A stretch of DNA of 42,054 bases from a virus (lineage: Duplodnaviria; Heunggongvirae; Uroviricota; Caudoviricetes), in IMG/VR virus record IMGVR_UViG_2609459819_000001, positions 1 through 42,054 of that record. One strand, given 5' to 3'. Of this stretch, positions 1 through 42,054 are shown piece by piece (positions within the stretch are counted from its first letter, which is position 1; each line of letters starts with the position of its first letter). A program made the translations under genes and the position numbers. Under the pieces are notes generated by a model that was given only the letters and a program-made list of their open reading frames with translations, was not told the origin of the DNA and did not search any database.

Positions 1-1013
1 CCTGCAAGATTTGTTGTCTGAGAGCCGCGAAAATTAGCCGAATTACCATTCACATTAACGTTGGCGCTCAGAAATGAACTACCGTCAGACAGCACCGCAT
101 TGACGCTTACAAATATGGCGAAAGACTGGCTGTTGGTGTATACGACACCGAGATTTCTAGATTTCATTCCGCATTGACCAAACAACCCTTTCATATCTGA
201 GTAGTTTTGTGATGCAGCAAGTGATGATGCAGCAACACCTGATTCTGTTGATGTTCTGGAATCAGATACGCGGATAATTCCCTTGTTTGTTGGGGTCGCA
301 TCATTGGTCTTGCCTTGCAGAGCTACAATATCCGCATAATTCATCGCTGCCGCTTTTGCTGTTGCAGCAAGCGTTTCAGATTCGGATACCCTTGATGATG
401 TAAGTTGAACAATTCCTTTCTGTGTCGTAGTTGAATCCTGAGTTTTGTTTTGCAAAGATTTTATGTCCGTATAGTTTTGCGCGACAGCATTAGCTGTGGC
501 TGCAATATCCTCTGCACCCGATACCCGCGATGACGTTAACCGGACTAAACCCACCTGTGTTGTTGATGCGTCTTTAATACCAAGGTATGTGAGAATGTCA
601 GCAATAGTATTTTTCCCAATAATGTCACGGCCAACAGAAGTTAAATCAGTCTGCGCTGCTGTATCATTTCCAGTGAAATATGGGAGTTTATTTGCACCTG
701 TTGCGAGCCCAGCTAATGCCGACAGCGTGGCATCAAGCGCCTGGAAATCTTTCCCGAAAGCGGTCCCCATTTTGGATATAAACCCGTTCAGGTCTCCATC
801 ATCAAGCACATCCAGCCTGCTTTTGTTGGCGGTGTACTGCGCCAACGCTGCCGCGATAAAGCTGGCTTGCCGAATAGCTTTGTTGACCTGTGCGCTGGAT
901 GCTTTACCTGCCGTAAACCCTGAAAGCAGAGCCGGAAGTGCTTCCCAGTCAGCTTGTGAGGTGACGTTAGCGTTCGGATCAAGCGCGAAAGGTTTAAAGT
1001 TGTTTATTGCCAT
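1..1013 (-). CDS. Tail fiber protein, N-terminal 337 codons (gene continues past window start)
   Basis: Manually translated minus-strand frame is open from ATG at 1013..1011 to position 1 with no stop; N-terminus MAINNFKPFALDPNANVTSQADWEAL; three tandem ~43-aa repeats (GLVRLTSSRVS.., GIVQLTSSRVS.., GIIRVSDSRTS..); sits downstream of baseplate genes. Confidence 0.55.
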   Translation of the reverse strand, partial: MAINNFKPFALDPNANVTSQADWEALPALLSGFTAGKASSAQVNKAIRQASFIAAALAQYTANKSRLDVLDDGDLNGFISKMGTAFGKDFQALDATLSALAGLATGANKLPYFTGNDTAAQTDLTSVGRDIIGKNTIADILTYLGIKDASTTQVGLVRLTSSRVSGAEDIAATANAVAQNYTDIKSLQNKTQDSTTTQKGIVQLTSSRVSESETLAATAKAAAMNYADIVALQGKTNDATPTNKGIIRVSDSRTSTESGVAASSLAASQNYSDMKGLFGQCGMKSRNLGVVYTNSQSFAIFVSVNAVLSDGSSFLSANVNVNGNSANFRGSQTTNLA

Positions 1014-1693
1014 TAGAGTATTGTCCCCCATGCTCCAACATCGAACCCGCCGATGTATTCGTTATCCATATCAAACCCAAAGAATTTAGAGCCCTCGGAT
1101 GGTGCTTCTACCGAAGGCGTTTCAACATCACCGGCCCATACGCCAGCTGCTTTAACGGTGAGATAGCCCTGTTTGATAGCGGCAATCAGTTCAAGAGACA
1201 CATCAGAAATATCAGTCTCGGGGAATACCCAAACCGATATCGTCATGTCCTGGTTGTCGACAATTTGCATCCTCAGGCCTGAGCCTTCAGTCGCAGCGTC
1301 AAGGATGGGAGGCAGAGAGTCGTTCCGACCGTCCCAGTTGTTGATAGCGATTTTCGCTTTCAGAATGATGCGGTACGTCTCATCGCTTAGCGTCGTATAG
1401 CCAGAATCAGGATCATATGGCCCTTGCCAGATGCCCTGGTCATACCCAAGCCCGTCAGTGTCCCAGCTGAAATAAACTCCGCTAATTGGCTGGCTGACTA
1501 TGCGACTGCGTCCGATCCACAGACCGAGGATGTCGAGCTGTACACCGACAGCAGTATCAATATCGAAGGCTGTTATAAGCCCTGACATAGTGCTGGACAC
1601 ATCAATCAGCGGGCGGGTGCTCAGATCTATATGGTCAAAAAAGAGTGGCTTGGTAGCGTGGTAGTTAGTGATCAGTTCGGTGTATTTGCTCAT
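1013..1693 (-). CDS. Baseplate / tail-fiber-proximal structural protein (gpI-position)
   Basis: 226-aa ORF between J-like gene and tail fiber; TAATG stop/start overlap with tail fiber; assignment by position. Confidence 0.4.
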   Translation of the reverse strand: MSKYTELITNYHATKPLFFDHIDLSTRPLIDVSSTMSGLITAFDIDTAVGVQLDILGLWIGRSRIVSQPISGVYFSWDTDGLGYDQGIWQGPYDPDSGYTTLSDETYRIILKAKIAINNWDGRNDSLPPILDAATEGSGLRMQIVDNQDMTISVWVFPETDISDVSLELIAAIKQGYLTVKAAGVWAGDVETPSVEAPSEGSKFFGFDMDNEYIGGFDVGAWGTIL

Positions 1694-2889
1694 GAGGTCA
1701 CCGTGATACTGATATTCGCGGTGCTACAGGACGCAGAAGCATCATAGGCAATATCAATGTTTGATGCCGATACGCTGCCAGACGACTTACCGATCAGCAG
1801 GTCGGTAATATCGTAATAGCGGGCATTCCCGCCGCTCACAACGCCGAGGTTTGCCGGGGAATAAATACGGCTCAGCAGAACGTCGTCGCCAATTGTTAGG
1901 CCATTTATATAATCGGCAACAGCCTGTTTAATCTGCTCGCCGATTTGAGAGGTATAGCCGGTAAAAACTTTCAGGGTAATGGCTACGAAAATTGGCACAT
2001 CGGTAGAGCGCGAAAAACTGATGACGTGTGGATTACCGTAAGTATCCGGCACCGTGACAGAAGTTTTACCGTAAGTTGCGGTTCCCTGCCCTTTACTCCC
2101 CCGGATTGTTTGGGCTATCTCGGTAACATCCCCTCCATCGACGATGGCGGAAATAGAGTGTGGCGGCAGCCCGTTGCTGTCGGTTGCCCCAGTGTCGTTC
2201 TCATATAGTTTGTGACGTGTCACGCCAGCAACATTAGCGATAGCACCGTCGACACCTTCAAACGGTGTGATCGATGGTAGCGCGACGCTTTGCCCCTGCC
2301 GAATGCGCAGCTCTGCGTCGGTTTCGGCTGGTGAACCGACAGTAGCCGCAACTGGATTGGTTACCGACACCCAACCTCGGGTCGGGGTGTTGATAGTGGT
2401 AATAGTCCCGGCCAGCGCCGCAACCGAACCGCTATTCGCACATGTGGCCGTCACCAGCACAGTACCATCAACGCCGATCGCTACACTTGCGGGAAAATTC
2501 CAGATAATGCCGTTTTTATCCCGTGCGGAGCCATTCGTGATAGTCGTGCCTGCCGTACCGGTTAACAGAAGGTCAGCAGTAGAGTTTGTCGCTACTTTTC
2601 GCGTGATCCCGTTAATTTTCACATTGCTGCTAAGCGCTGCGGCCTGCGCTGTCGTCGGTGAAAAAGAGTTGTAGATCCCGATAGCGGTGTTGTTAGCGTC
2701 ATGCACGGCAAGAGCCACCAGCGCGACCATCTGCCCGTCTTTGCTGTCTGGTTCGAGGTAGGCATCACTACCGTAAATCTGCCTGAAATAGCTGGTCAGT
2801 GTATCTAGGATTGTCTGGTAATCAGGCGCACTAATCCCCTGGGCGGTTACCGTTGCCGATAGCCCCAGCGTGTCGAGGTTCAAAGCCAT
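1690..2889 (-). CDS. Baseplate J-like protein
   Basis: 399-aa ORF; size and position (after W-like, before fiber) as in Mu gp47 / P2 gpJ; start overlaps the upstream stop. Confidence 0.5.
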   Translation of the reverse strand: MALNLDTLGLSATVTAQGISAPDYQTILDTLTSYFRQIYGSDAYLEPDSKDGQMVALVALAVHDANNTAIGIYNSFSPTTAQAAALSSNVKINGITRKVATNSTADLLLTGTAGTTITNGSARDKNGIIWNFPASVAIGVDGTVLVTATCANSGSVAALAGTITTINTPTRGWVSVTNPVAATVGSPAETDAELRIRQGQSVALPSITPFEGVDGAIANVAGVTRHKLYENDTGATDSNGLPPHSISAIVDGGDVTEIAQTIRGSKGQGTATYGKTSVTVPDTYGNPHVISFSRSTDVPIFVAITLKVFTGYTSQIGEQIKQAVADYINGLTIGDDVLLSRIYSPANLGVVSGGNARYYDITDLLIGKSSGSVSASNIDIAYDASASCSTANISITVTS

Positions 2890-3243
2890 TTATGCCTCGC
2901 TTGTTACAGTCGTCTGGCCGTAGATTGTGTCAATGGAGGAAGTGAAGGTGACGCGACGGCTGGTGCCGTCATAATTGGTATCGAAGGAAAGAATCGACAG
3001 AACGCCCGGTGTGTCCTGTATGCGTTCACGTATAGCCAGGATGTAGACGTCAGATCGCTGTTTACCAAGCACCGACTGAACATACGGCGTGCCTTCCGTC
3101 AGATCGAGAAACCACTGACCGCGCCACAGCTCGAAGCGGGTTTTTACTGCCTGGGCGACACATTCCGGACTGTCGATAAGGAAAGTATCGTCACCCTGCC
3201 CGAAAGTGTAATCACCGTCGGCGTCTTCACGTCTGTATCGCAT
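2890..3243 (-). CDS. Small baseplate protein (gpW / Mu gp46 position)
   Basis: 117-aa ORF immediately upstream of J-like gene. Confidence 0.4.
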   Translation of the reverse strand: MRYRREDADGDYTFGQGDDTFLIDSPECVAQAVKTRFELWRGQWFLDLTEGTPYVQSVLGKQRSDVYILAIRERIQDTPGVLSILSFDTNYDGTSRRVTFTSSIDTIYGQTTVTSEA

Positions 3244-29503: not shown

Positions 29504-30049
29504 TCATTCCCCCTTCACGCCAATGCCAGCGGCGCGGTCAATGCGTTCAATTTCTGCCAGAATAAGAGCGCCAGCTTTTACCAAGTCGCAGCGTGCTCCT
29601 GATTGCTTCCACCAATCAGGCGACCACGGCCAATGTGCTGGAGTGGAGAAACCTTGGTTGTGCGCATGAATTGCGTAACAAGCCGCTGCATCTGCTAATT
29701 CGCTATTTTGATATGCGTTGTCATGTTCAGGAGTCCATCCTTCAACCGACTGTTGCCGCTGACGTTCGGCTACCACATCCAGAATTGCTGGATTGAATGA
29801 ACGCGCCTCCAGTTCTGCTATGCGCTTCTCTGCGGCTTCCAGCTCATCCAGCAGCGCCAGCACGGTGGCGGGGTTGGCTGCGGCGATAAATGCAGCATCA
29901 CGCGCTTCGTTTTCACTGAATACCATGGCTATTTGCTCATGGTTCACGCCGTCAGTGGAGTAAATCTCATCGTCGAACTCAACAGCCCACCGGCCTTTCG
30001 TCGCCTTCTCCGCTGCTTCCCGTAATCCACGTTTGTCGATGTTGCTCAT
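29504..30049 (-). CDS. Ead/Ea22-like protein
   Basis: NPATVLALLDELEAAEKRIAELEAR motif recalled from Ead/Ea22-like prophage proteins. Confidence 0.4.
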   Translation of the reverse strand: MSNIDKRGLREAAEKATKGRWAVEFDDEIYSTDGVNHEQIAMVFSENEARDAAFIAAANPATVLALLDELEAAEKRIAELEARSFNPAILDVVAERQRQQSVEGWTPEHDNAYQNSELADAAACYAIHAHNQGFSTPAHWPWSPDWWKQSGARCDLVKAGALILAEIERIDRAAGIGVKGE

Positions 30050-30243
30050 TGGGCGGCCTCCTCCATGGCTGGGTCTGCTGGTAAAGTCATGTGCGGCACT
30101 TCAATCAGTTCTGCCCGAGCATCAGCCGTGTTAAGCGCCATTAATGCGACGATCCGCTTCTGCTCAGCATCCATTCGTAACGCTACTGTCTTGCCGTTCA
30201 TATTGAAGAACACCGCAACGTTTTTGATATCTTCGATTTTCAT
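30046..30243 (-). CDS. Hypothetical 65-aa protein
   Basis: Start at internal ATG 30243 (ATGA overlap with ren stop); GGGAGGG upstream. Confidence 0.3.
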   Translation of the reverse strand: MKIEDIKNVAVFFNMNGKTVALRMDAEQKRIVALMALNTADARAELIEVPHMTLPADPAMEEAAQ

Positions 30244-30584
30244 ACCCCTACCCTCCCCCAAACCATCAATACCCTTCTCATCGCCGCGCTGTTGCGGCAC
30301 TCCTGGCAGATCACGTTTGTGTCCGTCCGCTGAATTAACTTCGACTTACCCTGCTTCATGCCAGGTATCGTGTCAGGGGCGAAGCGCATTCCGTAGCTGG
30401 TCAGGCTGTAAAGGCGCTGGCCGTATTTTCCTTCGCAGCGGATCAGGCCGTCTGCCAGCAGCGTGCTCACCGTTCCGGATATCTTTTTGGTGTCCATGCC
30501 GATAAGCCCTGCCAGTTTGGCGTTGTTCAACCCTGGGTTGTTGCGCAGGGCTGCCAGCACCTGCTCACGGATTGTTATGTTCAT
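30240..30584 (-). CDS. ren: Ren-like protein
   Basis: C-terminus CQECRNSAAMRRVLMVWG resembles lambda Ren (ECRQSAAMKRVLAVYG) as recalled; located directly after P. Confidence 0.7.
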   Translation of the reverse strand: MNITIREQVLAALRNNPGLNNAKLAGLIGMDTKKISGTVSTLLADGLIRCEGKYGQRLYSLTSYGMRFAPDTIPGMKQGKSKLIQRTDTNVICQECRNSAAMRRVLMVWGRVGV

Positions 30585-30585
30585 G

Positions 30586-31275
30586 TCACACCATCCCGTT
30601 CGACTTGTTGCGGTTGTACTTGGCCAGCAGCAGCTGGATCGGCGTCGGCCCTTGCTCGGCAGCTGGTGCGGCAATAGCCCGGCGTACCGGCGGCACTGGC
30701 TTACCCTCGGTGACGCGCCTTTCCCACATGTCCAGCAGATCGCCTGCCTCGCGTGCCAGTTCACCATGCGTTAACTGGCGCTCGGTGCTGCGGTGGCGCA
30801 ATTCTACGCAAATGTGGTACATGACCGGCTGCGACCATGGAAATTGCTCGCTGGAGATGAATTCGAACGAGCGGTTACGCCAGTCCCAGTATTCGGCGAT
30901 CACCTGGTCAACGTTGACGCCCAGCGCGCCGCTGCTCTGCTTGCACCAGGCGACGAACTGGCCCGGCGACGGCAGGAATGGGCGCTCCTGGCGGCGGGCA
31001 ATGCGCATGCCGGCATCGACCTGAGCCATGGTGTGGATCCCGTTCTCCTGAAACGCCAGCAGCCACTGACGGCGGAATTCGTTCAGGTCTTCCTGGGTGC
31101 GGAAGTTCGCCATGCTGGCCGGGAACGCGGCGCGCAGCTCGTTGAACAGCTTGTTGAATACCTGCGCCACCTGCTCGACCGGCGCGCACTCCTGGTACTG
31201 CTCTGGCAGGTTATGGGCCATGCGGCTCATCTGCTCGCGGTCGCGGTTACGCATCTGCTCTGCAAGAGATTTCAT
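30586..31275 (-). CDS. P: Replication protein P (DnaB helicase loader), lambda P family
   Basis: MKSLAEQMRNRDREQM...FPAS..RRQWLLAFQENGI..RPFLPSPGQFVAWC closely parallels lambda P as recalled. Confidence 0.85.
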   Translation of the reverse strand: MKSLAEQMRNRDREQMSRMAHNLPEQYQECAPVEQVAQVFNKLFNELRAAFPASMANFRTQEDLNEFRRQWLLAFQENGIHTMAQVDAGMRIARRQERPFLPSPGQFVAWCKQSSGALGVNVDQVIAEYWDWRNRSFEFISSEQFPWSQPVMYHICVELRHRSTERQLTHGELAREAGDLLDMWERRVTEGKPVPPVRRAIAAPAAEQGPTPIQLLLAKYNRNKSNGMV

Positions 31276-32180
31276 CGGATCACCCCATAGGCCCAGTCAG
31301 TGTTGTTGAAGTCCAGATCTGGCTTGACAGCGCGCTGCTCACCTCCGGCGTTACGCTGCATTGTCAGCTTGTCCCACTGCTTACGCAGGCTTTCGGGACT
31401 CAGGATGTTGGTCTGCCAGAAGTGGTGTTTGCTAGCCCAGTCATACAGCGCGCAGATGTCCTGGTGCGACCGGTTGTCTATCTGGCGCATCAGGCGAACA
31501 GTGTTAGACCAGGAGGTCATGTCCGGGGCTTTGCAGGTTGGGTTAATCAGCTTCACCCTGGAGGAAATCCACTTAGCTGTCTCGAGGTCTTCAGCAGAGC
31601 CCCACTTCGCACCGGATGGTGTGTAGACCGCAGCTTCAGGATGAGTTGATAAAAATTTCTTCAGACGTGCGTCAGAGGATTCGTCAGAATTCTCTGACGA
31701 AGATCTTTTAATACTGTTCTTGTTCTTGTATTGGGTGTCTACCGTTTTCGGGAAGGTTATTCCTGATTTCGGGAAGGATTTTCCCGTTTTCGGGAATTTT
31801 CTTCCCGTTTCCGGTTTGTCTAAAATCCATGCTGAAAGGTCAGTGTTTACACCGACGATTTTCATCATGCCCTGCTTCTGTGAAAAGATGATTTTGCGTT
31901 CTGCGAGAGACTTAAGCGCGTCCGATACATGCGTATCGCTCAGGCCCGTAAGCTCGGCAATAACCGTATTTGTCACGCGGTCCTGTTTCTTGTTCCAGCC
32001 GTAGGTAAGCCAGATCACCGCCTCAAAACATTGCCATTCCCGGCCTGACAGTCTCAGGCGAGGCTTAAGCTGTTGGATCTCGTTAGCGACCTTGGTATAC
32101 CCGTTCGACAGGTCGGCCATACGACCTCCCGGTTGTTCGGTTTTATTTGGGAAATTGATTATTTCAGCGGTGTTTGACAT
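31272..32180 (-). CDS. O: Replication initiator O (lambda O family, N-terminal iteron-binding domain)
   Basis: Start MSNTAEIINFP (lambda O: MTNTAKILNF); contains iteron-encoded FPKTGKSFPKSGITFPKT linker. Confidence 0.8.
   Translation of the reverse strand: MSNTAEIINFPNKTEQPGGRMADLSNGYTKVANEIQQLKPRLRLSGREWQCFEAVIWLTYGWNKKQDRVTNTVIAELTGLSDTHVSDALKSLAERKIIFSQKQGMMKIVGVNTDLSAWILDKPETGRKFPKTGKSFPKSGITFPKTVDTQYKNKNSIKRSSSENSDESSDARLKKFLSTHPEAAVYTPSGAKWGSAEDLETAKWISSRVKLINPTCKAPDMTSWSNTVRLMRQIDNRSHQDICALYDWASKHHFWQTNILSPESLRKQWDKLTMQRNAGGEQRAVKPDLDFNNTDWAYGVIR
31740..31816. repeat. Origin iterons: four direct repeats (core TTTTCGGGAA) at 21-bp spacing, adjacent AT-rich segment
   Basis: Cores at 31745, 31766/7, 31787, 31807; each part of a TTCCCG..CGGGAA inverted repeat; inside the O gene as in lambda ori. 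Confidence 0.6.
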
Positions 32181-32189
32181 ACTGTTCTC

Positions 32190-32257
32190 CGCAATTACGC
32201 CCTGTTTTTGCACCTGAAAGCCGTTGGTGTTCGAGCACCGCGGCTTTCGCCATTTTT
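32190..32257 (+). ncRNA. oop-like antisense small RNA (predicted, about 70 nt)
   Basis: Plus-strand promoter TTGATT(32155-60)-17 nt-CATACT(32178-83) and plus-strand terminator GAAAGCCG..CGGCTTTC + TTTTT (32216-32257); antisense to the O start / cII-position gene 3' end. Confidence 0.35.
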
Positions 32258-32264
32258 GAACCGG

Positions 32265-32804
32265 TCATATAACCCCCAGCATAATCTGCACCATTTCCAT
32301 CAACGGACCGGTTAACCCAGGGTCAACGCGATACATCTCCACGATCCCCTCGCTCAACTCTTTCAGCTTCTGATGACGTGGCGCATCCATTGCGACAGCA
32401 ATCTTCGCTTCGCTGGTTTCCTTCCCCAGCCTTGCCAGACGAGCCATTACGTTGTCTTCTGGTAGCAGACGATTGCGGTATTCAATCGGCAGGACAGCGA
32501 GGATTGCCGGCGTCAGCTGGCGAACGTTTTCGCGGTACCGTTCGCTGTTGAAATGGTTATCCAGAAAGCGGAAAAGCTTCTGACGCTGTCGGCTGAGGTC
32601 ATCAGGGAAAGTGATCTCGTCTCCCCCTTGAGCCTGGTACTCTTCGATGATCAGAGCAGAAACGACATCCTGACCATCTACACCCGCCCACGCACGAACG
32701 GCATCGCGGATCTGGTCATGTTTATCTACCGAGACAGGTTGATTGCGATTTATCATCGCAGCCGTTTGATATCCGCTATTTTGATGAAGTGATAGTGACT
32801 GCAT
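32265..32804 (-). CDS. cII-position regulatory protein (YdaT-like?)
   Basis: 179-aa ORF directly downstream of cro-like gene; YdaT-like assignment by position (Rac ydaS-ydaT arrangement), low certainty. Confidence 0.35.
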   Translation of the reverse strand: MQSLSLHQNSGYQTAAMINRNQPVSVDKHDQIRDAVRAWAGVDGQDVVSALIIEEYQAQGGDEITFPDDLSRQRQKLFRFLDNHFNSERYRENVRQLTPAILAVLPIEYRNRLLPEDNVMARLARLGKETSEAKIAVAMDAPRHQKLKELSEGIVEMYRVDPGLTGPLMEMVQIMLGVI

Positions 32805-32806
32805 GG

Positions 32807-33040
32807 TTATGCCCTCGCTTCCTGAGCCGGTAATCCATCCGTAGGGTTGAGGTACAAATCAGGGCGTAACTCATGTGGAGTTACACCTGTAGCATTGAAA
32901 ATAGGAATGACACGGTTAGCCGGTACGAATCCATTGTCACGGTGACGCCAGTGACTGACCGTCATTGGGGATACATTGAGCTTTTCTGCTAAACGGGTTG
33001 CACCCCCTACGATGCATATTGCTTTATCAAGTGCTTTCAT
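32807..33040 (-). CDS. cro: Cro-like HTH regulator (YdaS/Cro family)
   Basis: 77 aa from internal ATG 33040 (MKALDKAICIVGGATRLAEKLNVSPMTVSHW...); GGAG 6 nt upstream; divergent from the repressor gene. Confidence 0.55.
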   Translation of the reverse strand: MKALDKAICIVGGATRLAEKLNVSPMTVSHWRHRDNGFVPANRVIPIFNATGVTPHELRPDLYLNPTDGLPAQEARA

Positions 33041-33067
33041 ATTTGGCTCCAAGTAATAACGAACCAA

Positions 33068-33096
33068 ATTAAACATTATGTTTATGTTCAAGTCAA
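33068..33096 (-). promoter_or_regulatory. pR-like promoter (TTGACT-17 nt-TTTAAT)
   Basis: -35 at 33096..33091, -10 at 33073..33068 on minus strand; operator palindrome in the spacer. Confidence 0.5.
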
Positions 33097-33111
33097 CATT
33101 ATGAATGTTGA
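33070..33111. promoter_or_regulatory. OR-like operators: palindromes TAAACATTATGTTTA (33070-33084) and TCAACATTATGAATGTTGA (33093-33111)
   Basis: Two perfect palindromes sharing AACATTATG in the 103-bp cro/repressor intergenic region, overlapping the pR -10/-35. Confidence 0.5.
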
Positions 33112-33135
33112 GGCGATAAACTTTTAGTTTAGAAT
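33108..33135 (+). promoter_or_regulatory. pRM-like promoter for the repressor (TTGAGG-16 nt-TAGAAT), near-leaderless transcript
   Basis: -10 ends 8 nt before the repressor ATG (33144); no SD present. Confidence 0.35.
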
Positions 33136-33143
33136 CTTGATAT

Positions 33144-33539
33144 ATGAGAAAAAACACACACCAAACAGATAACCCGCAGGTTCGGCGGTTAAATGAAATC
33201 ATCGAGAAGAAGCGCATATCCAAAGCGGATATAGCGAGAATCTGTGGTGTGAGCGCACAATCAGTCAACAACTGGTTTGTCAGAGGAGCGATAGGAAAAA
33301 GCTCAGCAATAAAACTTGCCGATGCGCTAGGCGTAAGTCTTGAGTGGGTTCTAGGTCAGGACGTGGATGCTAAGAACGGTTTGAGACACGACGAACGGAG
33401 ACTGTTGGAACTCTATAATCAACTCCCAAACGAAGAAGAACAACAGAACATGTTGCGGATCGTATCTCTACGGTTGAAAGAACTCGATGAACTGTACGCC
33501 AAGTACATGGGACGGCGGATTAAGGGCGATGCCGAGTAA
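33144..33539 (+). CDS. Phage repressor, HTH XRE family (cI-like but without peptidase S24 domain)
   Basis: 131-aa ORF divergent from cro; HTH-like region ISKADIARICGVSAQSVNNW; no Ala-Gly / Ser-Lys autocleavage region visible. Confidence 0.6.
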   Translation: MRKNTHQTDNPQVRRLNEIIEKKRISKADIARICGVSAQSVNNWFVRGAIGKSSAIKLADALGVSLEWVLGQDVDAKNGLRHDERRLLELYNQLPNEEEQQNMLRIVSLRLKELDELYAKYMGRRIKGDAE

Positions 33540-33584
33540 CGAGCCGCTGGTGCCCAGGAAGCATGGGTAGACAGGGATAAAATC

Positions 33585-33683
33585 ATGAGAATTGGTATAG
33601 TGTTTCCGATCTTGGTGTTCATCGTAGCTATGGGGTTTATGGCATGGTTTATCATCGATGGATACGCAACACCCAGCGGCTAA
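33585..33683 (+). CDS. 32-aa hydrophobic peptide (MRIGIVFPILVFIVAMGFMAWFIIDGYATPSG)
   Basis: Manually translated; AGGGA 7 nt upstream; single TM helix; immediately downstream of repressor. Confidence 0.25.
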   Translation: MRIGIVFPILVFIVAMGFMAWFIIDGYATPSG

Positions 33684-33795
33684 TTCGCAGTTCCACCGGT
33701 TGATAGCTTATAACAAATTATAGTAGTTGAAGGTGAAACAGATCGGGTATCTTCTGATATAACAATGAAACATTTTGTCTATAGATAGCATAGCT

Positions 33796-33816
33796 TGCAA
33801 CTAGATTTCAGTTGCA
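33796..33816. promoter_or_regulatory. Inverted repeat TGCAACT-N7-AGTTGCA upstream of hicA (candidate HicB operator)
   Basis: Perfect 7-bp arms, about 28 nt upstream of hicA start. Confidence 0.3.
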
Positions 33817-33843
33817 CTACCTTTAACAGAGGATGTATCCTTC

Positions 33844-34098
33844 GTGGGAAGAAAGGAAAAGCTAAAGTCAAAGTTAGACGGCTTACCCAAAAATTTTACT
33901 TGGGATGAGTTCGTTACTCTCATGAACCAGTATGGCTTCAAGCTTTTGAATGCTAAACGAGGTTCTGGTCGTAAATTTTACAACCAACGTGTTGATAGAT
34001 TGGTCATTTTTCATGAGCCTCATCCTGAAAACACCCTCAAAAGGTACGTCTTGGAAGAAGTTAAACAGCTGTTAGATGAGATTGATGATCATGAATAA
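33844..34098 (+). CDS. hicA: HicA-family toxin (YcfA-like mRNA interferase)
   Basis: 84-aa ORF with GF..L...KRGSGRKF...FHEPHP pattern resembling HicA; directly upstream of a HicB-like gene; GTG start. Confidence 0.5.
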   Translation: MGRKEKLKSKLDGLPKNFTWDEFVTLMNQYGFKLLNAKRGSGRKFYNQRVDRLVIFHEPHPENTLKRYVLEEVKQLLDEIDDHE

Positions 34099-34102
34099 CT
34101 TG

Positions 34103-34549
34103 ATGAAATACAAAGGTTACTATGGTAGCTCCAGCATTTCATTTGAAGATGGGGTGATGCATGGAAAACTCGAATGTATAAATGATCTCGTCACTTATGA
34201 GGGTGCAACGGTTGCAGAACTCCGTGCAGCCTTTGAGGAGGCCGTGGACGATTACCTCTCCACTTGTGAAGAGATAGGAAAATCTCCAGATAAGACAATG
34301 AGTGGTTCGTTTAACATCCGGATAGGTGAATCCCTGCATAAAAAAGCATATTTAGCTGCTAAAGCTAAGAATATGACTTTAAACGATTATGTAAAACAGG
34401 CTGTCAGTGAGTCAGTTAATGGGAAAAAAGAGGTTCACTACCACTTTGAAAAACCGAGGGATGTTAGAGAAGTTACTTTCTTCTCATCCCGTAGACGTAC
34501 AGAAGAGACCTATTGGGAAGTTTCAGTAGACAACGGAGTGCCACATTGA
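34103..34549 (+). CDS. hicB: HicB-family antitoxin (HicB fold + C-terminal RHH-like region)
   Basis: MKYKGYYGSSSISFEDGVMHGKLECINDLVTYEGATVAELRAAFEEAVDDYLSTCEEIGKSP...FNIRIGESLHKKA matches the HicB pattern. Confidence 0.65.
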   Translation: MKYKGYYGSSSISFEDGVMHGKLECINDLVTYEGATVAELRAAFEEAVDDYLSTCEEIGKSPDKTMSGSFNIRIGESLHKKAYLAAKAKNMTLNDYVKQAVSESVNGKKEVHYHFEKPRDVREVTFFSSRRRTEETYWEVSVDNGVPH

Positions 34550-34974
34550 TGCTTGATAAAATTCGCTTTAAGGGATTTGATCTCGAGGGTTCTTCCCTTT
34601 TTATCGACGACAGTGATAATTCTGAAGGCGGAAAATATAGCTTAAAATTTTCTGAGCATCACGTTGTTCCTCAAAAAGATGAAGATGGAAATTGGCTCTT
34701 TATTGAAGTTAAGCCATCGATAACTGGTTTCCCTCGCGATAAAAAAGATTTTGATGATGGTGAGGATGTATTGTTCAAGGCAGAGGCTACCTTGACACTA
34801 ACATTTGAGTGTGACCTCGATGAAGAAGTAACTGAGGATTTTTATAATGAAAATGCTTGGTTTTTTGAAAATTATGTATATGTATGTACAAAAACAGTTT
34901 TTGAAAATATGTTCAAAAACACAGTGTTAGATACTATAACGTTACCTTGGTCCCCAACATCATCTAGAAAATAA
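34549..34974 (+). CDS. Acidic hypothetical protein (141 aa) co-oriented with hicAB
   Basis: ATG overlaps hicB stop (TGATG); about 30 Asp/Glu vs about 14 Lys/Arg; AT-rich DNA; followed by terminator. Confidence 0.4.
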   Translation: MLDKIRFKGFDLEGSSLFIDDSDNSEGGKYSLKFSEHHVVPQKDEDGNWLFIEVKPSITGFPRDKKDFDDGEDVLFKAEATLTLTFECDLDEEVTEDFYNENAWFFENYVYVCTKTVFENMFKNTVLDTITLPWSPTSSRK

Positions 34975-34981
34975 TCTCCAA

Positions 34982-35009
34982 CCCGGCCACCGCGCCGGGG
35001 TTTCTTTTG
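34982..35009 (+). terminator. Intrinsic terminator ending the repressor/hicAB transcription unit
   Basis: CCCGGC-caccgc-GCCGGG stem followed by TTTCTTTTG. Confidence 0.5.
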
Positions 35010-35010
35010 C

Positions 35011-35205
35011 CTACCCTTTTCGCACTTCCTCAGCAGCAAACCTGAACACCTGTCGCCAAAAATCGTTCTGCTCAATATCCCCCAGCGACTCCAGCATTGA
35101 AATGATCGCCTCAGTAGTGGGCGCGTCTCCATGTGATATCAGATTCAGCGTCGCTCTACCTACCGCCTGACATACATCGTTGTAACCCACGTAGAACTTT
35201 TCCAT
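35011..35205 (-). CDS. Hypothetical 64-aa protein
   Basis: ORF with GAGGGTGGG upstream of ATG; convergent with hicAB unit. Confidence 0.3.
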   Translation of the reverse strand: MEKFYVGYNDVCQAVGRATLNLISHGDAPTTEAIISMLESLGDIEQNDFWRQVFRFAAEEVRKG

Positions 35206-35317
35206 ATCCCACCCTCATCGATTTTTTTATAACCACAAAATAGACCACAAAACATACTACTCGTGCCAACGAGCGCAACCAACTAAACTTTTTGTTTATA
35301 TAAAAATGCTCATTATG

Positions 35318-35346
35318 TTGACACGCAAATAAACATTGTGTTTAAT
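35318..35346 (+). promoter_or_regulatory. pL-like early promoter (TTGACA-17 nt-TTTAAT) with embedded operator TAAACATTGTGTTTA
   Basis: Near-identical architecture to pR; operator 35330-35344 in spacer/-10; second partial site CATTATGTTGA overlaps the -35. Confidence 0.5.
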
Positions 35347-35589
35347 TGCTCCATCAACACAACCACCAAAGCAGGACGCCCACGAAGAAGCCGTCCGGGG
35401 CATTCGAAGACCGGAATGAGGTGGTGAGATTAACGCGCAGTAGGTTTGAAACGTTCCGCCAGCCTGGCGACAAGGGCAAAGCACAGAGTGAGCTTCGCGG
35501 TGGTGAATTGCAGAGTTAAAGCGCTCAACCGTGAAGATCAGCGCCGCAGCAACACCAGCGAAGTTCACTCAGAAAAACTGGAGTACATC

Positions 35590-35796
35590 ATGGTTCATCA
35601 GCACTACGGTACACAGACAGTAAACCGCGGCGCAGTTCAGCCGGGGATGCTTGTAAAACACAAAGACTCAACCTGGACCGCATCTGCTAACGCACGCGGT
35701 CGCCTGTATCTTCACCGTGGCATCGAACGTACCTACACCAAAGATTTGCTGGTTGAGGTTTATCTAAACGGTTTAGGACATGGCCTTAGCCATTAA
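35590..35796 (+). CDS. Hypothetical 68-aa protein (first gene of pL-like operon)
   Basis: ATG with GGAG 6 nt upstream; preceded by about 240-nt leader. Confidence 0.3.
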   Translation: MVHQHYGTQTVNRGAVQPGMLVKHKDSTWTASANARGRLYLHRGIERTYTKDLLVEVYLNGLGHGLSH

Positions 35797-35807
35797 CGGA
35801 GTGAGTT

Positions 35808-35969
35808 ATGCAGGAGAAAAAATGCGCGTACTGCCGCAAGCCGATCAAGCAAGGGAAGGAAGTTAAAAACGAACTGCTCTTTATCCACGGCACGCAGTTG
35901 AAACGCGAGCAACGTGATTACTGTTCAGTACGTTGCGCTTCGTTCGACCAGATGGCCCACGAAGCATAA
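35808..35969 (+). CDS. Small zinc-ribbon protein (53 aa; CxxC...CxxxC)
   Basis: Manually translated MQEKKCAYCRKPIKQGKEV...DYCSVRCASFDQMAHEA; GGAG 6 nt upstream; occupies the position of Rac ydaE upstream of recE. Confidence 0.3.
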   Translation: MQEKKCAYCRKPIKQGKEVKNELLFIHGTQLKREQRDYCSVRCASFDQMAHEA

Positions 35970-36107
35970 CGAAAACCCCGCGCAAGGCGGGATTCACGTC
36001 CGGTGCCACCGACCAAAGTTACACCGGAATTTATACCAAACCAAAAAACATCCAATGGGCGCTATCTCTGGCCCGGGGATTCTAACACTCAAAAAAGAGG
36101 ATCTCAC

Positions 36108-39017
36108 ATGGAATTTTTCCATCTGATAAAAGCCAGTCAGAAGTCTGGCAAGAAAGATGCAGTGATTTGGTTCACTGCGAAAAGTGTAGCGCGCGCCAAT
36201 CTCCAACTCGATGTGGCACTGGAAGAAGCCGGAATTGAAGAAACTGGCCGCGGTAAAGATTATGCCAAACCAATCCGCACCGATTTCCCGGTATATGACG
36301 ACCTGCCGGAAGAAGGCGCAGTGGATTACACCTGGTGCAAACGCTACGAACTGCAGAACGATGACCGCACCTGGCTGCCAAAAGTCACAGCTGAAAACTC
36401 TGACGAGAAAACGGCTCAGACCGTTGATAGTCACATAACTACTGAGTCAACGCTGCCAGAAACCGCTGGCATCACGCTGGACGAACACGACGACGACTCA
36501 ACCCTCTACCCGGTAGTGCAGATGCCGTTTCGTAAGCAACTGCTTTCCCAGTTCACCGCCGACGAACTGCGCCACCACGTAACCCGCGAAGAGTACGAAG
36601 CTATCGGCGCGCTGGAGATGGACACTGATAACAGTTACGTCCAGAACTTGCTGTTAGCTGCTGAGAACTGCCCGGACGTGAAGGGTTACGACACCAAAGA
36701 CCTGTGGCGCTACACCGATGCCATTCGCAAAGTGTTCAGCCAGGACAAGCGTCACGAACTCGCGCTGGTACTCCGTTTCACCAGAATGTGGGCGGCGACT
36801 GATTACATTGACCGTGGCATCCTGGCGCGTGAATGGGCTGCCGGTAATCACATCAGTAGTGTTCAGCGTACTGATTCCGGAACCAATGCCAACGGCGGTT
36901 ACGTCACTGACCGTGGACCTGATGCATACCATACCCTTGACACTCTCGATTTAGAGATTGCATGTGCCCTTCTGCCTATGGACTTCAACCACTTCGAGAT
37001 CCCGGGCAGCATTCTTCGTCGCGCTAAAGAAATCGTGACCAAAAAAGAAGAACCGTGGAAATCATGGAGCAGCATTCTGCGCAATCAACCCGGCGTTCTT
37101 GGCGTTAACCGCACAGCTATTTTTAACCTGATACGTATCGCGCCGGAAAATATTCATCTAACTCCTGTCGCTCACCTGGAGTTTGTTAACCGGACCATGA
37201 CTGCTGCGTTTAATGCTGCTGTTGAGTTATTGCCATTGCATGAAGCTGAGCCCGCAACACAGGAAATTCCCCAACCTGAAGGTAAGGAGTCTCCGCGCAA
37301 ATCCTTCTGCACTCACGAAGAGAACCTGCAACGCGTGCGTGAAGAAGGAGCACGCCGCCGCGCAGAGGAAGCGGCAGCACAACCGCAGAAAGTCGAACAA
37401 GAACTGGTTAAAAATGTCGGCAACGGAATATTCGACGTTACGGCTTTGCTGCAGAACTCAGCAACTCATGGCACGAAAAAGGCTACGGAGACCACCAGCA
37501 ATGTGCAGGTTCAAGAAACTGTCAGTGATGAAAAACAAGCTGGTGATGAAGTACAGCCAGGCGAAAGCAGTCTGGAGTCTGGTGAAGAGTCAGATACCAG
37601 CCAGAAGGACGATGTAGACCAGAATACGGATTCTGTCGCCAAAAATAGCGATTCTGTAAGCCAAACCGAACCAGTTGCAGCACAAACCGAGCCAGAAGCG
37701 CAATCTGACGAACCAGCTGTTGTTTATCCCGCTTATTTCGAGCCAGGCCGCTATGAAGGGCTGCCAAACGAGGTTTACCACGCCGCCAACGGCATCAGCT
37801 CAACCCAGGTGAAAGATGCGCGCGTTTCGCTGATGTACTTCAATGCGCGCCACGTAGAGAAAACCATCGTCAAAGAGCGCTCAGCGGTGCTGGACATGGG
37901 CAACTTGGTGCATGCGCTGGCGTTGCAGCCTGAACTACTGGACGCAGAATTCAGCGTTGAACCGGTGATCCCTGAAGGCGCATTCACAACGGCCGCGACC
38001 CTGCGCGCCTTTATCGATGAGCACAATGCCAGCCTGCCGGCGCTGCTGTCTGCCGACGACATCAAGGTGTTACTGGAAGAGTACAACGCCACCCTGCCGC
38101 CGCAGGTTCCGCTTGGCGCTAACCTGGAAGAAACGGCACAGAACTATATGGCGCTGCCAGCTGACTTCCAGCGTATTGATGGTGACCAGAAGCAGACGGC
38201 GACGGCAATGAAGGAATGCATTAAAGAGTACAACGCCACCCTGCCGCCGCCGGTTAAAACCAGCGGCAGCCGTGACGCGCTGCTGGAGCAGTTGGCAATC
38301 ATCAACCCTGACCTTGTGGCTCAGGAAGCACAGAAACCGGCACCACTGAAAGTGTCCGGTACCAAAGCAGACATGATCCAGGCCGTGAAGGCAGTCAAAC
38401 CAGATGCCGTATTTGCCGACGAACTGCTGGATGCCTGGCGCGATAACCCGGAAGGAAAAGTGCTGGTCACCCGCCAGCAGCTGAGCACCGCGCTGAATAT
38501 TCAAAAAGCGCTTCTGGCACACCCGACCGCCGGCATGCTGCTGACCCACCCTAGCCGAGCCGTTGAGGTGAGCTACTTTGGTTTTGACGAGGAGACGGGC
38601 TTGGAAGTTCGTGTGCGCCCTGACCTTGAGATCGACCTGGATGGCGTGCGTATAGGTGCAGACCTGAAAACCATCAGCATGTGGAATGTTAAGCAGGAAA
38701 GCCTGCGCGCCAGGCTACACCGGGAAATTATTGAACGTGATTATCACCTGAGCGCGGCTATGTACTGCGAAACCGCAGCGCTGGATCAGTTCTTCTGGAT
38801 TTTCGTCAACAAAGACGAGAACTACCACTGGATCGCCATCATCGAGGCATCCGCTGAACTACTGGAGCTGGGTATGCTCGAGTACCGCAAAGCGATGCGC
38901 AATATCGCAACCGGATTCGACACAGGTGAATGGCCAGCGCCAATCACTGCTGACTACACCGACGAACTGAACGACTTCGACCTGCGCCGCCTTGAAGCGC
39001 TGCGTACTCAGGCATAA
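36108..39017 (+). CDS. recE: RecE-like exonuclease VIII (C-terminal PD-(D/E)xK nuclease domain)
   Basis: 969 aa from ATG 36108 (AAGAGG upstream); acidic N-terminal region; C-terminal RPDLEIDLDGVRIGADLKT with Asp and D-x-K motifs; followed by recT-like gene. Confidence 0.55.
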   Translation: MEFFHLIKASQKSGKKDAVIWFTAKSVARANLQLDVALEEAGIEETGRGKDYAKPIRTDFPVYDDLPEEGAVDYTWCKRYELQNDDRTWLPKVTAENSDEKTAQTVDSHITTESTLPETAGITLDEHDDDSTLYPVVQMPFRKQLLSQFTADELRHHVTREEYEAIGALEMDTDNSYVQNLLLAAENCPDVKGYDTKDLWRYTDAIRKVFSQDKRHELALVLRFTRMWAATDYIDRGILAREWAAGNHISSVQRTDSGTNANGGYVTDRGPDAYHTLDTLDLEIACALLPMDFNHFEIPGSILRRAKEIVTKKEEPWKSWSSILRNQPGVLGVNRTAIFNLIRIAPENIHLTPVAHLEFVNRTMTAAFNAAVELLPLHEAEPATQEIPQPEGKESPRKSFCTHEENLQRVREEGARRRAEEAAAQPQKVEQELVKNVGNGIFDVTALLQNSATHGTKKATETTSNVQVQETVSDEKQAGDEVQPGESSLESGEESDTSQKDDVDQNTDSVAKNSDSVSQTEPVAAQTEPEAQSDEPAVVYPAYFEPGRYEGLPNEVYHAANGISSTQVKDARVSLMYFNARHVEKTIVKERSAVLDMGNLVHALALQPELLDAEFSVEPVIPEGAFTTAATLRAFIDEHNASLPALLSADDIKVLLEEYNATLPPQVPLGANLEETAQNYMALPADFQRIDGDQKQTATAMKECIKEYNATLPPPVKTSGSRDALLEQLAIINPDLVAQEAQKPAPLKVSGTKADMIQAVKAVKPDAVFADELLDAWRDNPEGKVLVTRQQLSTALNIQKALLAHPTAGMLLTHPSRAVEVSYFGFDEETGLEVRVRPDLEIDLDGVRIGADLKTISMWNVKQESLRARLHREIIERDYHLSAAMYCETAALDQFFWIFVNKDENYHWIAIIEASAELLELGMLEYRKAMRNIATGFDTGEWPAPITADYTDELNDFDLRRLEALRTQA

Positions 39018-39028
39018 GGGGAATGATG

Positions 39029-40141
39029 ATGGAAAACACGAATATCGTAACCGCTGAACAGCAGACTCCAAACACGATCTCAGCCAGCAATGCCATTTTC
39101 AACGTGCAGGCTTTAACCCAGCTTCAGTCTGTCGCCGGGTTGATGGCACAGGCAGCCGTAACGGTGCCTGAGCACCTCCGCGGCAATCCGGCAGACTGCA
39201 TGGCCATCATCATGCAGGCGATGCAGTGGGGTATGAACCCTTACGCCGTGGCGCAAAAGACGCACCTGGTTAACGGTGTCCTGGGATACGAAGCGCAACT
39301 GGTTAATGCGGTGATCTCCAGCTCAAACGCCATCGTTGGCCGCTTTCACTATGAGTACGAGGGCGACTGGTCGAAATGTGCCAGCAGCCGCGAGATAACC
39401 GTTAAAAAGCCTGCGAAAGGTGGCGGGACGTACGACAAGAAAGAAATGGTACGCGGTTGGGAAAGTGCTGATGAACAAGGACTGTCGGTACGGGTAGGTG
39501 CCGTTATTCGCGGTGAAAGTGATATCACCTGGGGAGAGCCTGTTTTCCTCTCCAGCGTAATCACACGTAATTCTCCACTTTGGGTATCAAACCCGAAACA
39601 GCAGATCGCTTATCTGGCACTCAAATACTGGGCGCGCCTATATTGCCCTGCAGTTGTTCTTGGTGTGTACACCCCTGATGAGATTGAACAGCGCACAGAA
39701 AAAGAGATCAACCCAACGCCGCAACGCGTTAGCCTGGCTGATATCTCAGGTGACACCGTCACAACCACGCAAAGCGCACAGGAATCGTCGGTAAATGTCG
39801 ACTCTCTTGCCGATGATTTCCGCGAACGCATCGAATCTGCTCAGGACGTGGATAGCGCCAAATCGCTGCGTGCCGACATTGAAACGGCGAAAGCTACGCT
39901 GGGATCCGCACTATTCACCGAGCTGAAAAACAAAGCCGTAAAGCGTTATTACCTAGTGGATGCACGCAACAAGGTTGAGGAGGCTATTAAATCCCTGCCC
40001 CAGCCCGACGAGCCGCATGCAGCCGAACGGTTCGCTGAAGCCGAGCGCATGCTTGCATCTTCAAAGCGTCACTTAGGCGATGAACTGCACGATCAATTCA
40101 GCATCACCCTGGCGGATATGAAACCGGAATACGTGGCCTGA
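39029..40141 (+). CDS. recT: RecT/Bet-family single-strand annealing protein
   Basis: AIIMQAMQWGMNPYAVAQKTHLV and NPKQQIAYLALKYWARLYCP parallel lambda Bet/RecT motifs; start ambiguous among three consecutive ATGs (39023/39026/39029). Confidence 0.6.
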   Translation: MENTNIVTAEQQTPNTISASNAIFNVQALTQLQSVAGLMAQAAVTVPEHLRGNPADCMAIIMQAMQWGMNPYAVAQKTHLVNGVLGYEAQLVNAVISSSNAIVGRFHYEYEGDWSKCASSREITVKKPAKGGGTYDKKEMVRGWESADEQGLSVRVGAVIRGESDITWGEPVFLSSVITRNSPLWVSNPKQQIAYLALKYWARLYCPAVVLGVYTPDEIEQRTEKEINPTPQRVSLADISGDTVTTTQSAQESSVNVDSLADDFRERIESAQDVDSAKSLRADIETAKATLGSALFTELKNKAVKRYYLVDARNKVEEAIKSLPQPDEPHAAERFAEAERMLASSKRHLGDELHDQFSITLADMKPEYVA

Positions 40142-40179
40142 CGAGACCGGGAGGGGTAACCCTCCCTCAAGGAGATTAT

Positions 40180-40422
40180 ATGCGACTGATCAATCGAGGA
40201 AGTAAGCAATCACCTTTAGCTCGCCAAGCATGCGACATCGCGCTGGCAGCTCACTTGCAAACATATGGCGACTATGGGCGAAGCAAGATGAAAGAGACTT
40301 ATACGGTGAAGGTTGAAGGCGTGAAAGTCTGGGTGGAGGTGGTGAACCGAAAGGCGAGCTACGTGGCCACAGCGATGACCGGCATGCGCCGTCTCCGCTC
40401 CCTGCCCGGGCAGGTTGGTTGA
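40180..40422 (+). CDS. Hypothetical 80-aa protein
   Basis: AGGAG 7 nt upstream of ATG; position of Rac ralR/ydaC. Confidence 0.3.
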   Translation: MRLINRGSKQSPLARQACDIALAAHLQTYGDYGRSKMKETYTVKVEGVKVWVEVVNRKASYVATAMTGMRRLRSLPGQVG

Positions 40423-40463
40423 AAAAGATTTTGAATGGCCCGAACGGGCAACTGGAGAGAGCT

Positions 40464-40661
40464 ATGGATGATATTTTGGTAACGTCAGACCTGACCAGTC
40501 GCTACAAAATTTCACGCAAAACCCTTTGGTCATGGCAAAGTGCAGACACAATGCCTCGGGGCTTCGTATGCCCGTTCCCACCCCCTGACTGGCCCGGCAA
40601 CCCTAACCGCTGGCGCTCTGAGTCAATCAAAGAGTGGGAGGATAAAAAGAAGATAAATTAA
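40464..40661 (+). CDS. xis: Excisionase / AlpA-family DNA-binding protein
   Basis: 65 aa from ATG 40464 (GGAGAG upstream); [19 protein letters not shown] pattern; 4-nt convergent overlap with integrase stop. Confidence 0.45.
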
Positions 40662-41851
40662 CTGAAGGGCTCTCCGATGATCTCTTCAAGATGGCTCTGC
40701 CAAACGCGGAGCCAGTGTTTCTGATCATCGATATAGTCATGAAGGTTGTAATGCGCCATAACCCCCACCATCTGATGCCCGAGCAGCTTTTCAATTACGT
40801 GCGGCGGGCAACCTAACTCAGAGAGATTTGTGGCTATCGTCCGCCTCATATCATGAAGCGACCACTCTGCCATACCTGTTCCATTCCAAATAGAACGGGC
40901 GTAATTGGATGCCACAGGTGAATGAACGGGCGAATCTTTGATCCCGCCATCAATTTTACGTTGTGAAGTCACCAGGTGATTGGTGTTTATTTTCTTGAGG
41001 TGATTTCTGACCAGGTTAACGGCGGCGTCTGAGAGTCCCCTTCTAATATGTACCCGAGTTTTATAACTGCCCGCAGGCACGACCCACTCATTATCATCCA
41101 ATCGAAACCATGATCTCTCACTAAGTCGAATCTCAGCCGTACGGCATCCGGTAAGCATAATAAATTTCACCAGGAAAACGGACTCTATCGACATATGGCT
41201 TTTCAACCACTGATAGATTTTGCGCAGATCGTCATCGTCCATCCTGCGAGTTCTCTTTTTAGGCTTTTGCCCGACATCAGATGGCAGTAATCCCTCGAGT
41301 GGGTTTGAGGCGATCACACTTCTGTTAACGCAGAACCTAAACGCCCGTTTGCACAGCGAAAGCATGTAATGAGCCATCACCCTGCTTTCTATAGAATCGA
41401 AGACGTTGATCCAGTGCATTTTCGCTGTGTTATCGACTTTGACATTCTTCATCGGTTCGGCGATATGTTTCTCAAACACCTGGCGATAGTAATCGACTTT
41501 AACTAGCCCGTTAGCGATACAGTGCCTTTCAATCCAGTAATTGAACGCTTCGGCAACGGACATCGCTTCCTGTCGGGTCTGCTTATCCAGCTTCACCTGC
41601 TCTCGCGGATCCAGTCCCTCAGTTAACCAGTTTCTGAATTGTTGGCGACGCTCTCTTGCCTGGGTGATACTCATTGCAGGATAATCACCAACATTGAGTT
41701 TTACCGCTTTACCGGCCCAGCGATACCGATAGAAAAATGATATTTTTCCGGCCTGGCTGATTCTGGCGTTGAGCCCGTGCGAATCAGAAATAATCTCGAT
41801 ATCATCTCTTTTCTTGCCGAGCGCCTTCCTGAGCTTTGTGTCGGTGATCAT
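40658..41851 (-). CDS. int: Tyrosine integrase (P4-like, N-terminal arm-binding domain)
   Basis: C-terminal [28 protein letters not shown]...MAHY catalytic region; N-terminal [14 protein letters not shown]...[23 protein letters not shown]; start taken at internal ATG 41851. Confidence 0.8.
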
Positions 41852-41856
41852 TGAAT

Positions 41857-41898
41857 GGGTACACATTTTTGTTTTTGGGTACACAAAAGTGTACACAA
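41857..41898. repeat. Three direct repeats G(G/T)GTACACA immediately upstream of integrase start
   Basis: Copies at 41857-41865, 41878-41886, 41889-41897 (GTGTACAC is palindromic). Confidence 0.35.
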
Positions 41899-42054
41899 AG
41901 TTGCCCACTCAAAGCTACACGCAATGTAACACTAGTTCGCAGAGTGTTATGATTTACATCCTTGAAAGCCTGCTGGATAAGGGTTTAGCGTAACAGAACG
42001 TTTTTACGCGGAATTGTTCGTAATATGCCAAATGACAATTTAAGAAAGTGTTCT

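Follow-up and report, generated by a model that had tools for sequence, protein, structure and literature searches.

The three short direct repeats that lie immediately upstream of the integrase gene of this prophage are probably arm-type sites for the integrase (Int) which also serve as an autoregulatory operator of int. The sequence-only reading had described them as candidate arm-type sites or an int operator, and comparison with related phages and prophages argues well for that proposal: the repeats are conserved blocks, they stand at a fixed distance from the attachment core, and further copies of the motif occur on the other arm. The features of the locus discussed here, with positions counted in the window (the whole stretch of DNA analyzed, 42,054 nt), are as follows.

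40464–40661, + strand: xis, encoding an excisionase of 65 aa (annotated in X04051 and JX871397)
40658–40661, both strands: TTAA common to the 3′ ends of xis and int
40658–41851, − strand: int, encoding a heterobivalent tyrosine integrase of 397 aa (402 aa from 41866)
40692–40714, + strand: stable hairpin that follows the xis stop directly, within the 3′ end of int; putative terminator for leftward (pL/xis) transcription
41857–41865, + strand: proximal repeat, GGGTACACA
41877–41885, + strand: middle repeat, GGGTACACA
41889–41897, + strand: distal repeat, GTGTACACA
41888–41893, − strand: putative −10 (TACACT) of the int promoter pI (JX871397, “possible promoter for int”)
41915–41920, − strand: putative −35 (GTGTAG) of pI (JX871397; a weak match, 21 bp from the −10)
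41898–42034: rest of the int-proximal att arm, with conserved blocks from alignments (an inverted repeat and a core-proximal block)
42035–42051: 17-bp phi80 att core, ACAATTTAAGAAAGTGT (JX871397, “attP core”; single exact match in the window)

The phi80 Integration Module in a Mosaic Prophage

The repeats belong to the well-known integration module of phage phi80, which was named in no part of the sequence-only reading. Positions 40201–42054 are 99.5–99.9% identical to the phi80 int-xis-attP module, and the 1655 bp from 40400 to 42054 are 99.9% identical to phi80 (JX871397, NC_021190, X04051) and likewise to HK225, mEp237 and mEpX1. The module also matches 174 complete E. coli genomes, those of DH5alpha, DH10B and TOP10 included, and JM83 is a further carrier. 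The locus is a known and already characterized kind of integration system whose convergent gene arrangement has already been published: X04051, the int-xis record of 1986, shows convergent genes with a 4-nt overlap, and JX871397 annotates xis, int, a putative terminator (40693–40713), a “possible” int promoter and the 17-bp attP core. The module was reportedly the subject of work by Leong et al. in 1985 (JBC 260:4468) and 1986 (JMB 189:603), as cited in the GenBank records and in reference lists. The arm repeats are without annotation in the GenBank phi80 records, and no mapping of the phi80 Int arm sites, or of the motif, was found in the literature searched, the reach of which did not extend to the primary phi80 papers of 1985–86. 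What we add here is the family-wide architecture of three plus two repeats, the fixed distances between its parts and the overlap of the repeats with putative expression signals of int.

In this module the DNA of the window is that of phi80: xis and int converge with the 4-nt overlap, the 17-bp core is identical, and insertion is likewise at the 3′ end of yciI. The int-proximal arm has a single SNP, at 41952 (A in the window, G in phi80 JX871397). The window is, however, not phi80 itself, being phi80-like only in ~40201–42054. The prophage is a mosaic in which the phi80-like part is the DUF4060-xis-int-att module alone (99.5%) and the early region resembles mEp237 (97.9% identity over 82% of 30000–42054). 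The left end of the window encodes baseplate J/gp47-type contractile-tail proteins similar to those of Citrobacter phage Omnitron and Yersinia phage YP3, whereas phi80 is a siphovirus. Because the window starts within a tail-fibre gene, the other end of the prophage lies outside it. The DUF4060 gene (40180–40422, + strand; Pfam 1.5e-34) is directly upstream of xis, and it accompanies the int-xis module in phi80 and in a 52%-identical Klebsiella relative. The int-xis module itself is found in phages with differing immunity and structural genes and, since it is shared across different immunity regions, the protein that binds the repeats would be one encoded by the module or by the host.

At its right end the window stops 3 nt past the att core, and a strain that harbors this type of prophage has an identical 17-bp core at the junction with yciI. 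There are no tRNA genes in the window, the insertion target being the 3′ end of yciI.

Three Repeats Upstream of int

On the int-sense strand the order is TGTGTACAC (distal), 3 nt, TGTGTACCC (middle), 11 nt, TGTGTACCC (proximal), 5 nt and then the ATG at 41851, with an int-sense consensus of TGTGTAC; if base 41888 is included, the distal repeat reads TGTGTACACT. Measured from start to start, the spacing is 20 bp between the proximal and middle repeats and 12 bp between the middle and distal repeats, so that all three fall inside 41 bp and span 5–47 nt upstream of the ATG. The distal repeat is an 8-bp palindrome; the core of the motif, GTGTACAC in this repeat, is palindromic, so that neither the orientation of the motif nor monomeric binding is certain.

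The statement that three 9-bp copies sit just upstream of int is borne out, positions included, when int is taken to begin at the RefSeq start (ATG 41851, 397 aa), which leaves all three copies outside the gene. Other start codons are on record: GenBank JX871397 uses the ATG at 41866..41864 (402 aa), which overlaps the proximal repeat by 2 nt, and X04051 lists the longest int, beginning with a GTG from 41908 (416 aa), which would put all three repeats within the ORF. The RefSeq start is the one that fits both the onset of the arm-domain profile, as Arm-DNA-bind_3 starts one residue after the Met encoded at 41851, and the start codons of relatives, which have ATG or TTG at the equivalent codon. 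We also observed that dozens of predicted prophage contigs in IMG/VR have the int start codon (corresponding to 41851) as their exact beginning; boundary trimming at that point therefore drops the att arm together with its repeats and the core.

Four copies of the 9-mer GKGTACACA are present in the 42-kb window against 0.32 expected, and at least four were obtained in 0 of 100 shuffles. The 7-mer GTACRCA, by comparison, is not enriched over the whole window (nine found versus 7.9 expected). The fourth exact 9-mer (GTGTACACA), at 39664–39672 on the − strand, is isolated within a recT-like gene and is probably there by chance.

Conservation of the Repeats in Related Phages

Our comparison covered 29 distinct variants of the 75 nt upstream of int, from Escherichia, Kluyvera, Citrobacter and Klebsiella, with Int proteins 52–100% identical. 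Among the relatives are Kluyvera and Citrobacter prophages (Int 81–87%) and the Klebsiella phage Kp4864-1 (77%), while the group at 52% comprises Klebsiella phages, Stx2a phages and E. coli ML35 and is inserted at the sapB/sapC junction (the sapC group). The distal TGTGTACACT is invariant in 29 of the 29 variants, its trailing T included, as is GTGTAC of the proximal copy (29/29). In the middle copy it is G.GTA and the 12-bp spacing that are conserved, the relatives reading TGCGTACTC, TGTGTACTC, TGTGTATAT or AGTGTATAC. GTAC is constant throughout the phi80 group, and GTACACA is the part of the motif most conserved among relatives.

Across the 29 variants the repeats are the only conserved non-coding blocks, the spacers and flanks being variable, and when the phi80 and sapC groups are compared they are the sole part of the arm that can be aligned. 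Their spacing is fixed at 12 bp and then 19–20 bp (the middle and proximal copies are 20 bp apart here and 19 bp apart in relatives), and the core and the distal copy are separated by 137 nt in phi80 and by 135 nt in the sapC group. This geometry is common to groups that use different host insertion sites, yciI in one and sapB/sapC in the other. Between the two groups, the N-terminal 90 residues of Int are 73% identical, versus 46% over the remaining residues and 50% in Xis; a conserved Int N-domain joined to a diverged remainder parallels an arm motif that is unchanged and a core target that is not. A sequence beside the distal copy in the sapC group, CAATTTAAG, resembles the phi80 core, and we rejected the likeness as a coincidence since this sequence is variable among close relatives.

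The Other Attachment Arm

Is the motif also found on the far side of the core? The sequence-only reading had proposed that the same 9-mer be sought at the unseen end of the prophage, and the outcome for the motif is positive: a pair of copies is present on the other arm in three lineages. The exact 9-mer G(G/T)GTACACA does not occur on that arm, where the variant AAGTACACA, which shares GTACACA, is alone present. In phi80 there is one additional GTACACA, 81–83 nt beyond the core, in the same orientation. E. coli GPEC60-12-649, the prophage of which is 100% identical to positions 579–3000 of the window, carries a phi80-like other arm at its yciI junction, and both this arm and that of phi80 read, on the int-sense strand, TGTGTACTT and then, 12 bp on, a weak TGTGCCC. 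The other arm of Kp4864-1 is otherwise poorly conserved and has TGTGTACTT and TGTGTCC at the same place. In ML35 (Int 52%), the arms of which are unalignable with those of phi80, the other arm has TGTGTATAT-N3-TGTGTATAT, 75 nt from a 14-bp core. The pair is thus 12 bp apart and in the same orientation in three lineages, 75–81 nt from the core. Absence of the motif from the other arm was the result that the sequence-only reading had named as telling against it, and with the motif on both arms that result did not arise.

Between the core and the other-arm pair there are two perfect matches to the IHF consensus (WATCAANNNNTTR) in phi80 and one in ML35, and none with up to one mismatch on the int-proximal arm. 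A scan of viral contigs for the sapB junction gave 0 matches. Other candidates for the sapC-group arm were rejected: the Stx2a record has no junction at its right end, strain 90-3040 is rearranged, and the Klebsiella record stops before the junction.

The other-arm pair was also seen to lie within or beside a GC-rich hairpin that follows the final phage gene, which in phi80 is pinL. The stem of the phi80 hairpin, GGGCACA/TGTGCCC, itself forms the weak second copy, and in Kp4864-1 a different hairpin stem encloses both copies. On this arm, a terminator and the arm sites appear to occupy the same space.

Int, Its Putative Promoter and the Int-Proximal Arm

The integrase has both a Pfam Arm-DNA-bind_3 domain (1.5e-18; residues 7–92 of the 402-aa form) and a Phage_integrase domain (8e-17), and is 100% identical to the Int proteins of phi80, HK225 and mEp237. 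Its gene starts at 41851, 184 bp from the core at 42035, with no annotated gene between. Because int starts at the outer end of the arm with its 5′ end facing the core, the int promoter must lie within the arm. The putative −10 TACACT of JX871397 lies within the distal repeat and is invariant in all relatives; neither this hexamer nor the −35 was recovered by a sigma-70 consensus scan, which detected no consensus promoter there. A cII box of the lambda type was rejected, as TTGC-N6-TTGC (≤1 mismatch) is absent upstream of int. In the sapC-group relatives, the proximal copy is placed exactly between a Shine-Dalgarno-like sequence (GGAG/GAGG) and the TTG start.

We infer that the repeats of the int-proximal arm are bound by the N-terminal domain of the phi80-type Int. 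Two further copies, on the other arm just outside the window, would complete a set of five which, together with IHF sites and the 17-bp core, would build the intasome for integration and excision. With int starting at the outer end of the arm and pointing away from the core, these sites also overlap its putative expression signals: the distal copy would cover the −10, the middle copy the likely transcript start and the proximal copy the region before the start codon. Int bound at the repeats would then repress its own gene, as with KplE1 IntS and P4 Int. Several points count against this model, namely the poor −35, the 21-bp spacer, a promoter that comes from GenBank annotation only, the weakness of the TGTGCCC copy and the absence of an IHF consensus from the int-proximal arm.

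The arm holds other features between the repeats and the core. An inverted repeat, TAACACT-N9-AGTGTTA, is present at 41927–41949; its inner part, ACACT-N9-AGTGT, is kept with a variable spacer in the Kluyvera/Citrobacter relatives and is not kept in Kp4864-1. It could be a site for a dimeric protein, either Xis or a host factor. A block next to the core (~41985–42020, CGTAACAGAACGTTTTTACGCGGAATTGTTCG) is almost invariant in the whole phi80 group, the 77%-identical Kp4864-1 included, and exceeds the int coding sequence in conservation; it is a candidate for holding sites of Xis, IHF or Fis, or core-type contacts with Int. On the + strand, a promoter-like sequence with a TG extension (GTAACA-16-TATGAT, 41926–41953) reads outward to the att core and host DNA. 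At 41952, the one SNP of this arm relative to phi80, the A found here gives this sequence a better −10, TATGAT in place of the TATGGT that results from the G of JX871397.

Xis and the Convergent Overlap

The excisionase matches PHROG 1553 “excisionase” at 7e-34. It had been called AlpA-like in the sequence-only reading, and older papers place phi80 Xis in or near the AlpA family (PMC3064807; PMC2603039). That label finds no support in profile searches, as Pfam Phage_AlpA (PF05930) gave no match for phi80 Xis at E ≤ 10, nor for three relatives at E ≤ 1; the matches obtained instead were the one to PHROG 1553 and a sub-threshold one to the Gifsy-1 Xis model NF033499 (E = 1.3e-3). Phi80-type Xis proteins match the Gifsy-1 model weakly, with E values of 1.3e-3 and 4e-7, and Xis has no sequence match in the PDB.

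The convergent arrangement of xis and int, with 4 nt shared, was read correctly, and the overlap is kept in relatives, where it amounts to 4 nt in Kp4864-1, 37 nt in an Stx2a phage and 104 nt in Klebsiella phage ST846-OXA48phi9.2. It is the genes that share the 4 nt; the two stop codons share 2 nt, that of xis being the TAA at 40659–40661 (+ strand) and that of int being read from 40660 to 40658 (− strand). In all relatives examined xis adjoins int and, because Xis accompanies Int in every one of them, co-variation cannot separate the two proteins.

What would this geometry mean for transcription? The hairpin that follows xis has 9 pairs and then a weak U tract in the terminator scan, and folds at −27 kcal/mol (z = −3.8). 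On the int-sense strand downstream of the int stop there is no convincing terminator (106 nt folded, z = −1.8, no U run; whole region scanned), and for this reason int transcripts probably run antisense through xis. The geometry would allow xis and int to be coupled through transcriptional interference, as the sequence-only reading had proposed, and mutual interference or antisense control is plausible. A more far-reaching proposal, which we regard as doubtful, is that directionality in phi80-type phages is controlled in a manner unlike that of lambda: the three plus two Int sites would make int self-limiting from a promoter buried in the arm and, on induction, the pL/xis transcript would run antisense into the overlapping 3′ end of int and so reduce the level of Int in relation to that of Xis, thereby replacing sib retroregulation. 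We know of no lambdoid phage in which such antisense coupling has been demonstrated.

Alternative Explanations for the Repeats

The serious alternative is that the three repeats form a tripartite Xis site of the lambda X1-X1.5-X2 or Gifsy-1 type, at which Xis would bend the arm for excision and shut int down at the level of DNA or leader RNA, as with P4 Vis and KplE1 TorI. Gifsy-1 Xis does bind three imperfect direct repeats in attP (PMC2603039), the phi80-type Xis proteins match the model of that protein, if weakly (E 1.3e-3, 4e-7), excisionases repress int in both KplE1 (TorI) and P4 (Vis) (PMC2951348), and xis is found beside int in all relatives examined. A tripartite excisionase site would, however, consist of packed repeats placed on one arm only and between the arm sites and the core. 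The Xis sites of lambda are confined to one arm, and the usual place of an excisionase site is on the core side of the arm-type sites. Here three lineages have the motif on each of the two arms, the cluster occupies the outermost part of its arm, 137–194 bp from the core, and spacings of 12 and 19–20 bp would give no contiguous filament; moreover, the motif is unchanged between groups in which identity is 50% for Xis, below the 73% of the Int N-domain. The TorI sites of KplE1 are likewise described on attL only (PMC2951348). On balance we consider it distinctly unlikely that the repeats are a site for Xis.

Nor do we give much credence to the idea that the repeats play no role in recombination and serve expression alone, be it as promoter, UP-like or translation-initiation elements or as an operator at which a host regulator or some other phage regulator acts. 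It would account for the annotated −10 TACACT inside the distal copy, with a trailing T that is invariant too, for the place of the proximal copy between Shine-Dalgarno-like sequence and start codon in the sapC group, and for the 8-bp palindrome of the distal copy, of a kind expected for dimeric regulators. It leaves without explanation a motif pair on the other arm in three lineages, far from any int promoter, and a distance to the core that is conserved though the intervening sequence is not; the movement of the module between differing immunity regions argues against a phage repressor, and no sigma-70 consensus promoter was detected. That the cluster is a product of chance, or the functionless relic of a small local duplication, is scarcely credible. 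The motif is short, a fourth exact copy does occur in the recT-like gene and GTACRCA is not enriched in the window (9 vs. 7.9 expected), but a stretch of 41 bp contains three copies, four copies of the 9-mer arose in none of 100 shuffles and the copies are invariant across relatives in which the surrounding DNA is unalignable, so that the chance reading is effectively refuted by what the alignments indicate about conservation.

Comparison with Known Integration Systems

If the repeats are, as we think probable, Int arm sites that double as the int operator, then the arm bases likely to be needed and the probable self-repression of int would be of use in designing a minimal attP and in interpreting prophage stability. 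For single-copy integration into the chromosome, the phi80 int/attP module is in standard use (CRIM and “clonetegration” vectors). The biological gain is a small one: one more probable member of the KplE1/P4 class of autoregulated integrases, here at a protein-gene target.

In this respect the phi80-type module resembles KplE1 (CPS-53) intS/TorI and P4 int/Vis. In KplE1, the P′1 arm site is close to the −10 of the intS promoter and IntS represses intS, and the same has been reported for P4 Int (PMC2951348). As in those systems, the 5′ end of int faces the core, Int has an arm-binding domain, int and the excisionase gene are transcribed separately and the arm repeats are at or near the −10 and the transcript start, the promoter being putative here. 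Negative autoregulation has been demonstrated by experiment for KplE1 intS and P4 int and would be expected here by analogy. There are differences of arrangement: the phi80-type xis is next to int and convergent with it, with overlapping 3′ ends, and is not at the other end of the prophage, and the target is a protein gene (yciI or sapB) and not a tRNA gene.

The attP of lambda has five arm-type sites (P1, P2 and P′1–P′3), IHF sites and a core. The phi80-type module resembles it in its heterobivalent Int, in five arm repeats split three plus two, in having one long and one short arm and, on the short arm only, in matches to the IHF consensus placed between the core and the repeats. It is unlike lambda in the motif and in the family of the Int N-domain (Arm-DNA-bind_3, as in P4-type integrases), and also in that int points away from attP and would have a promoter of its own in the arm, with neither pL-driven int nor sib-type retroregulation. 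To the Xis site of Gifsy-1, finally, the resemblance consists of three imperfect direct repeats in attP and an excisionase weakly similar to phi80 Xis, but in the phi80-type module the motif is on both arms, stands at the outer end of the arm and is irregularly spaced.
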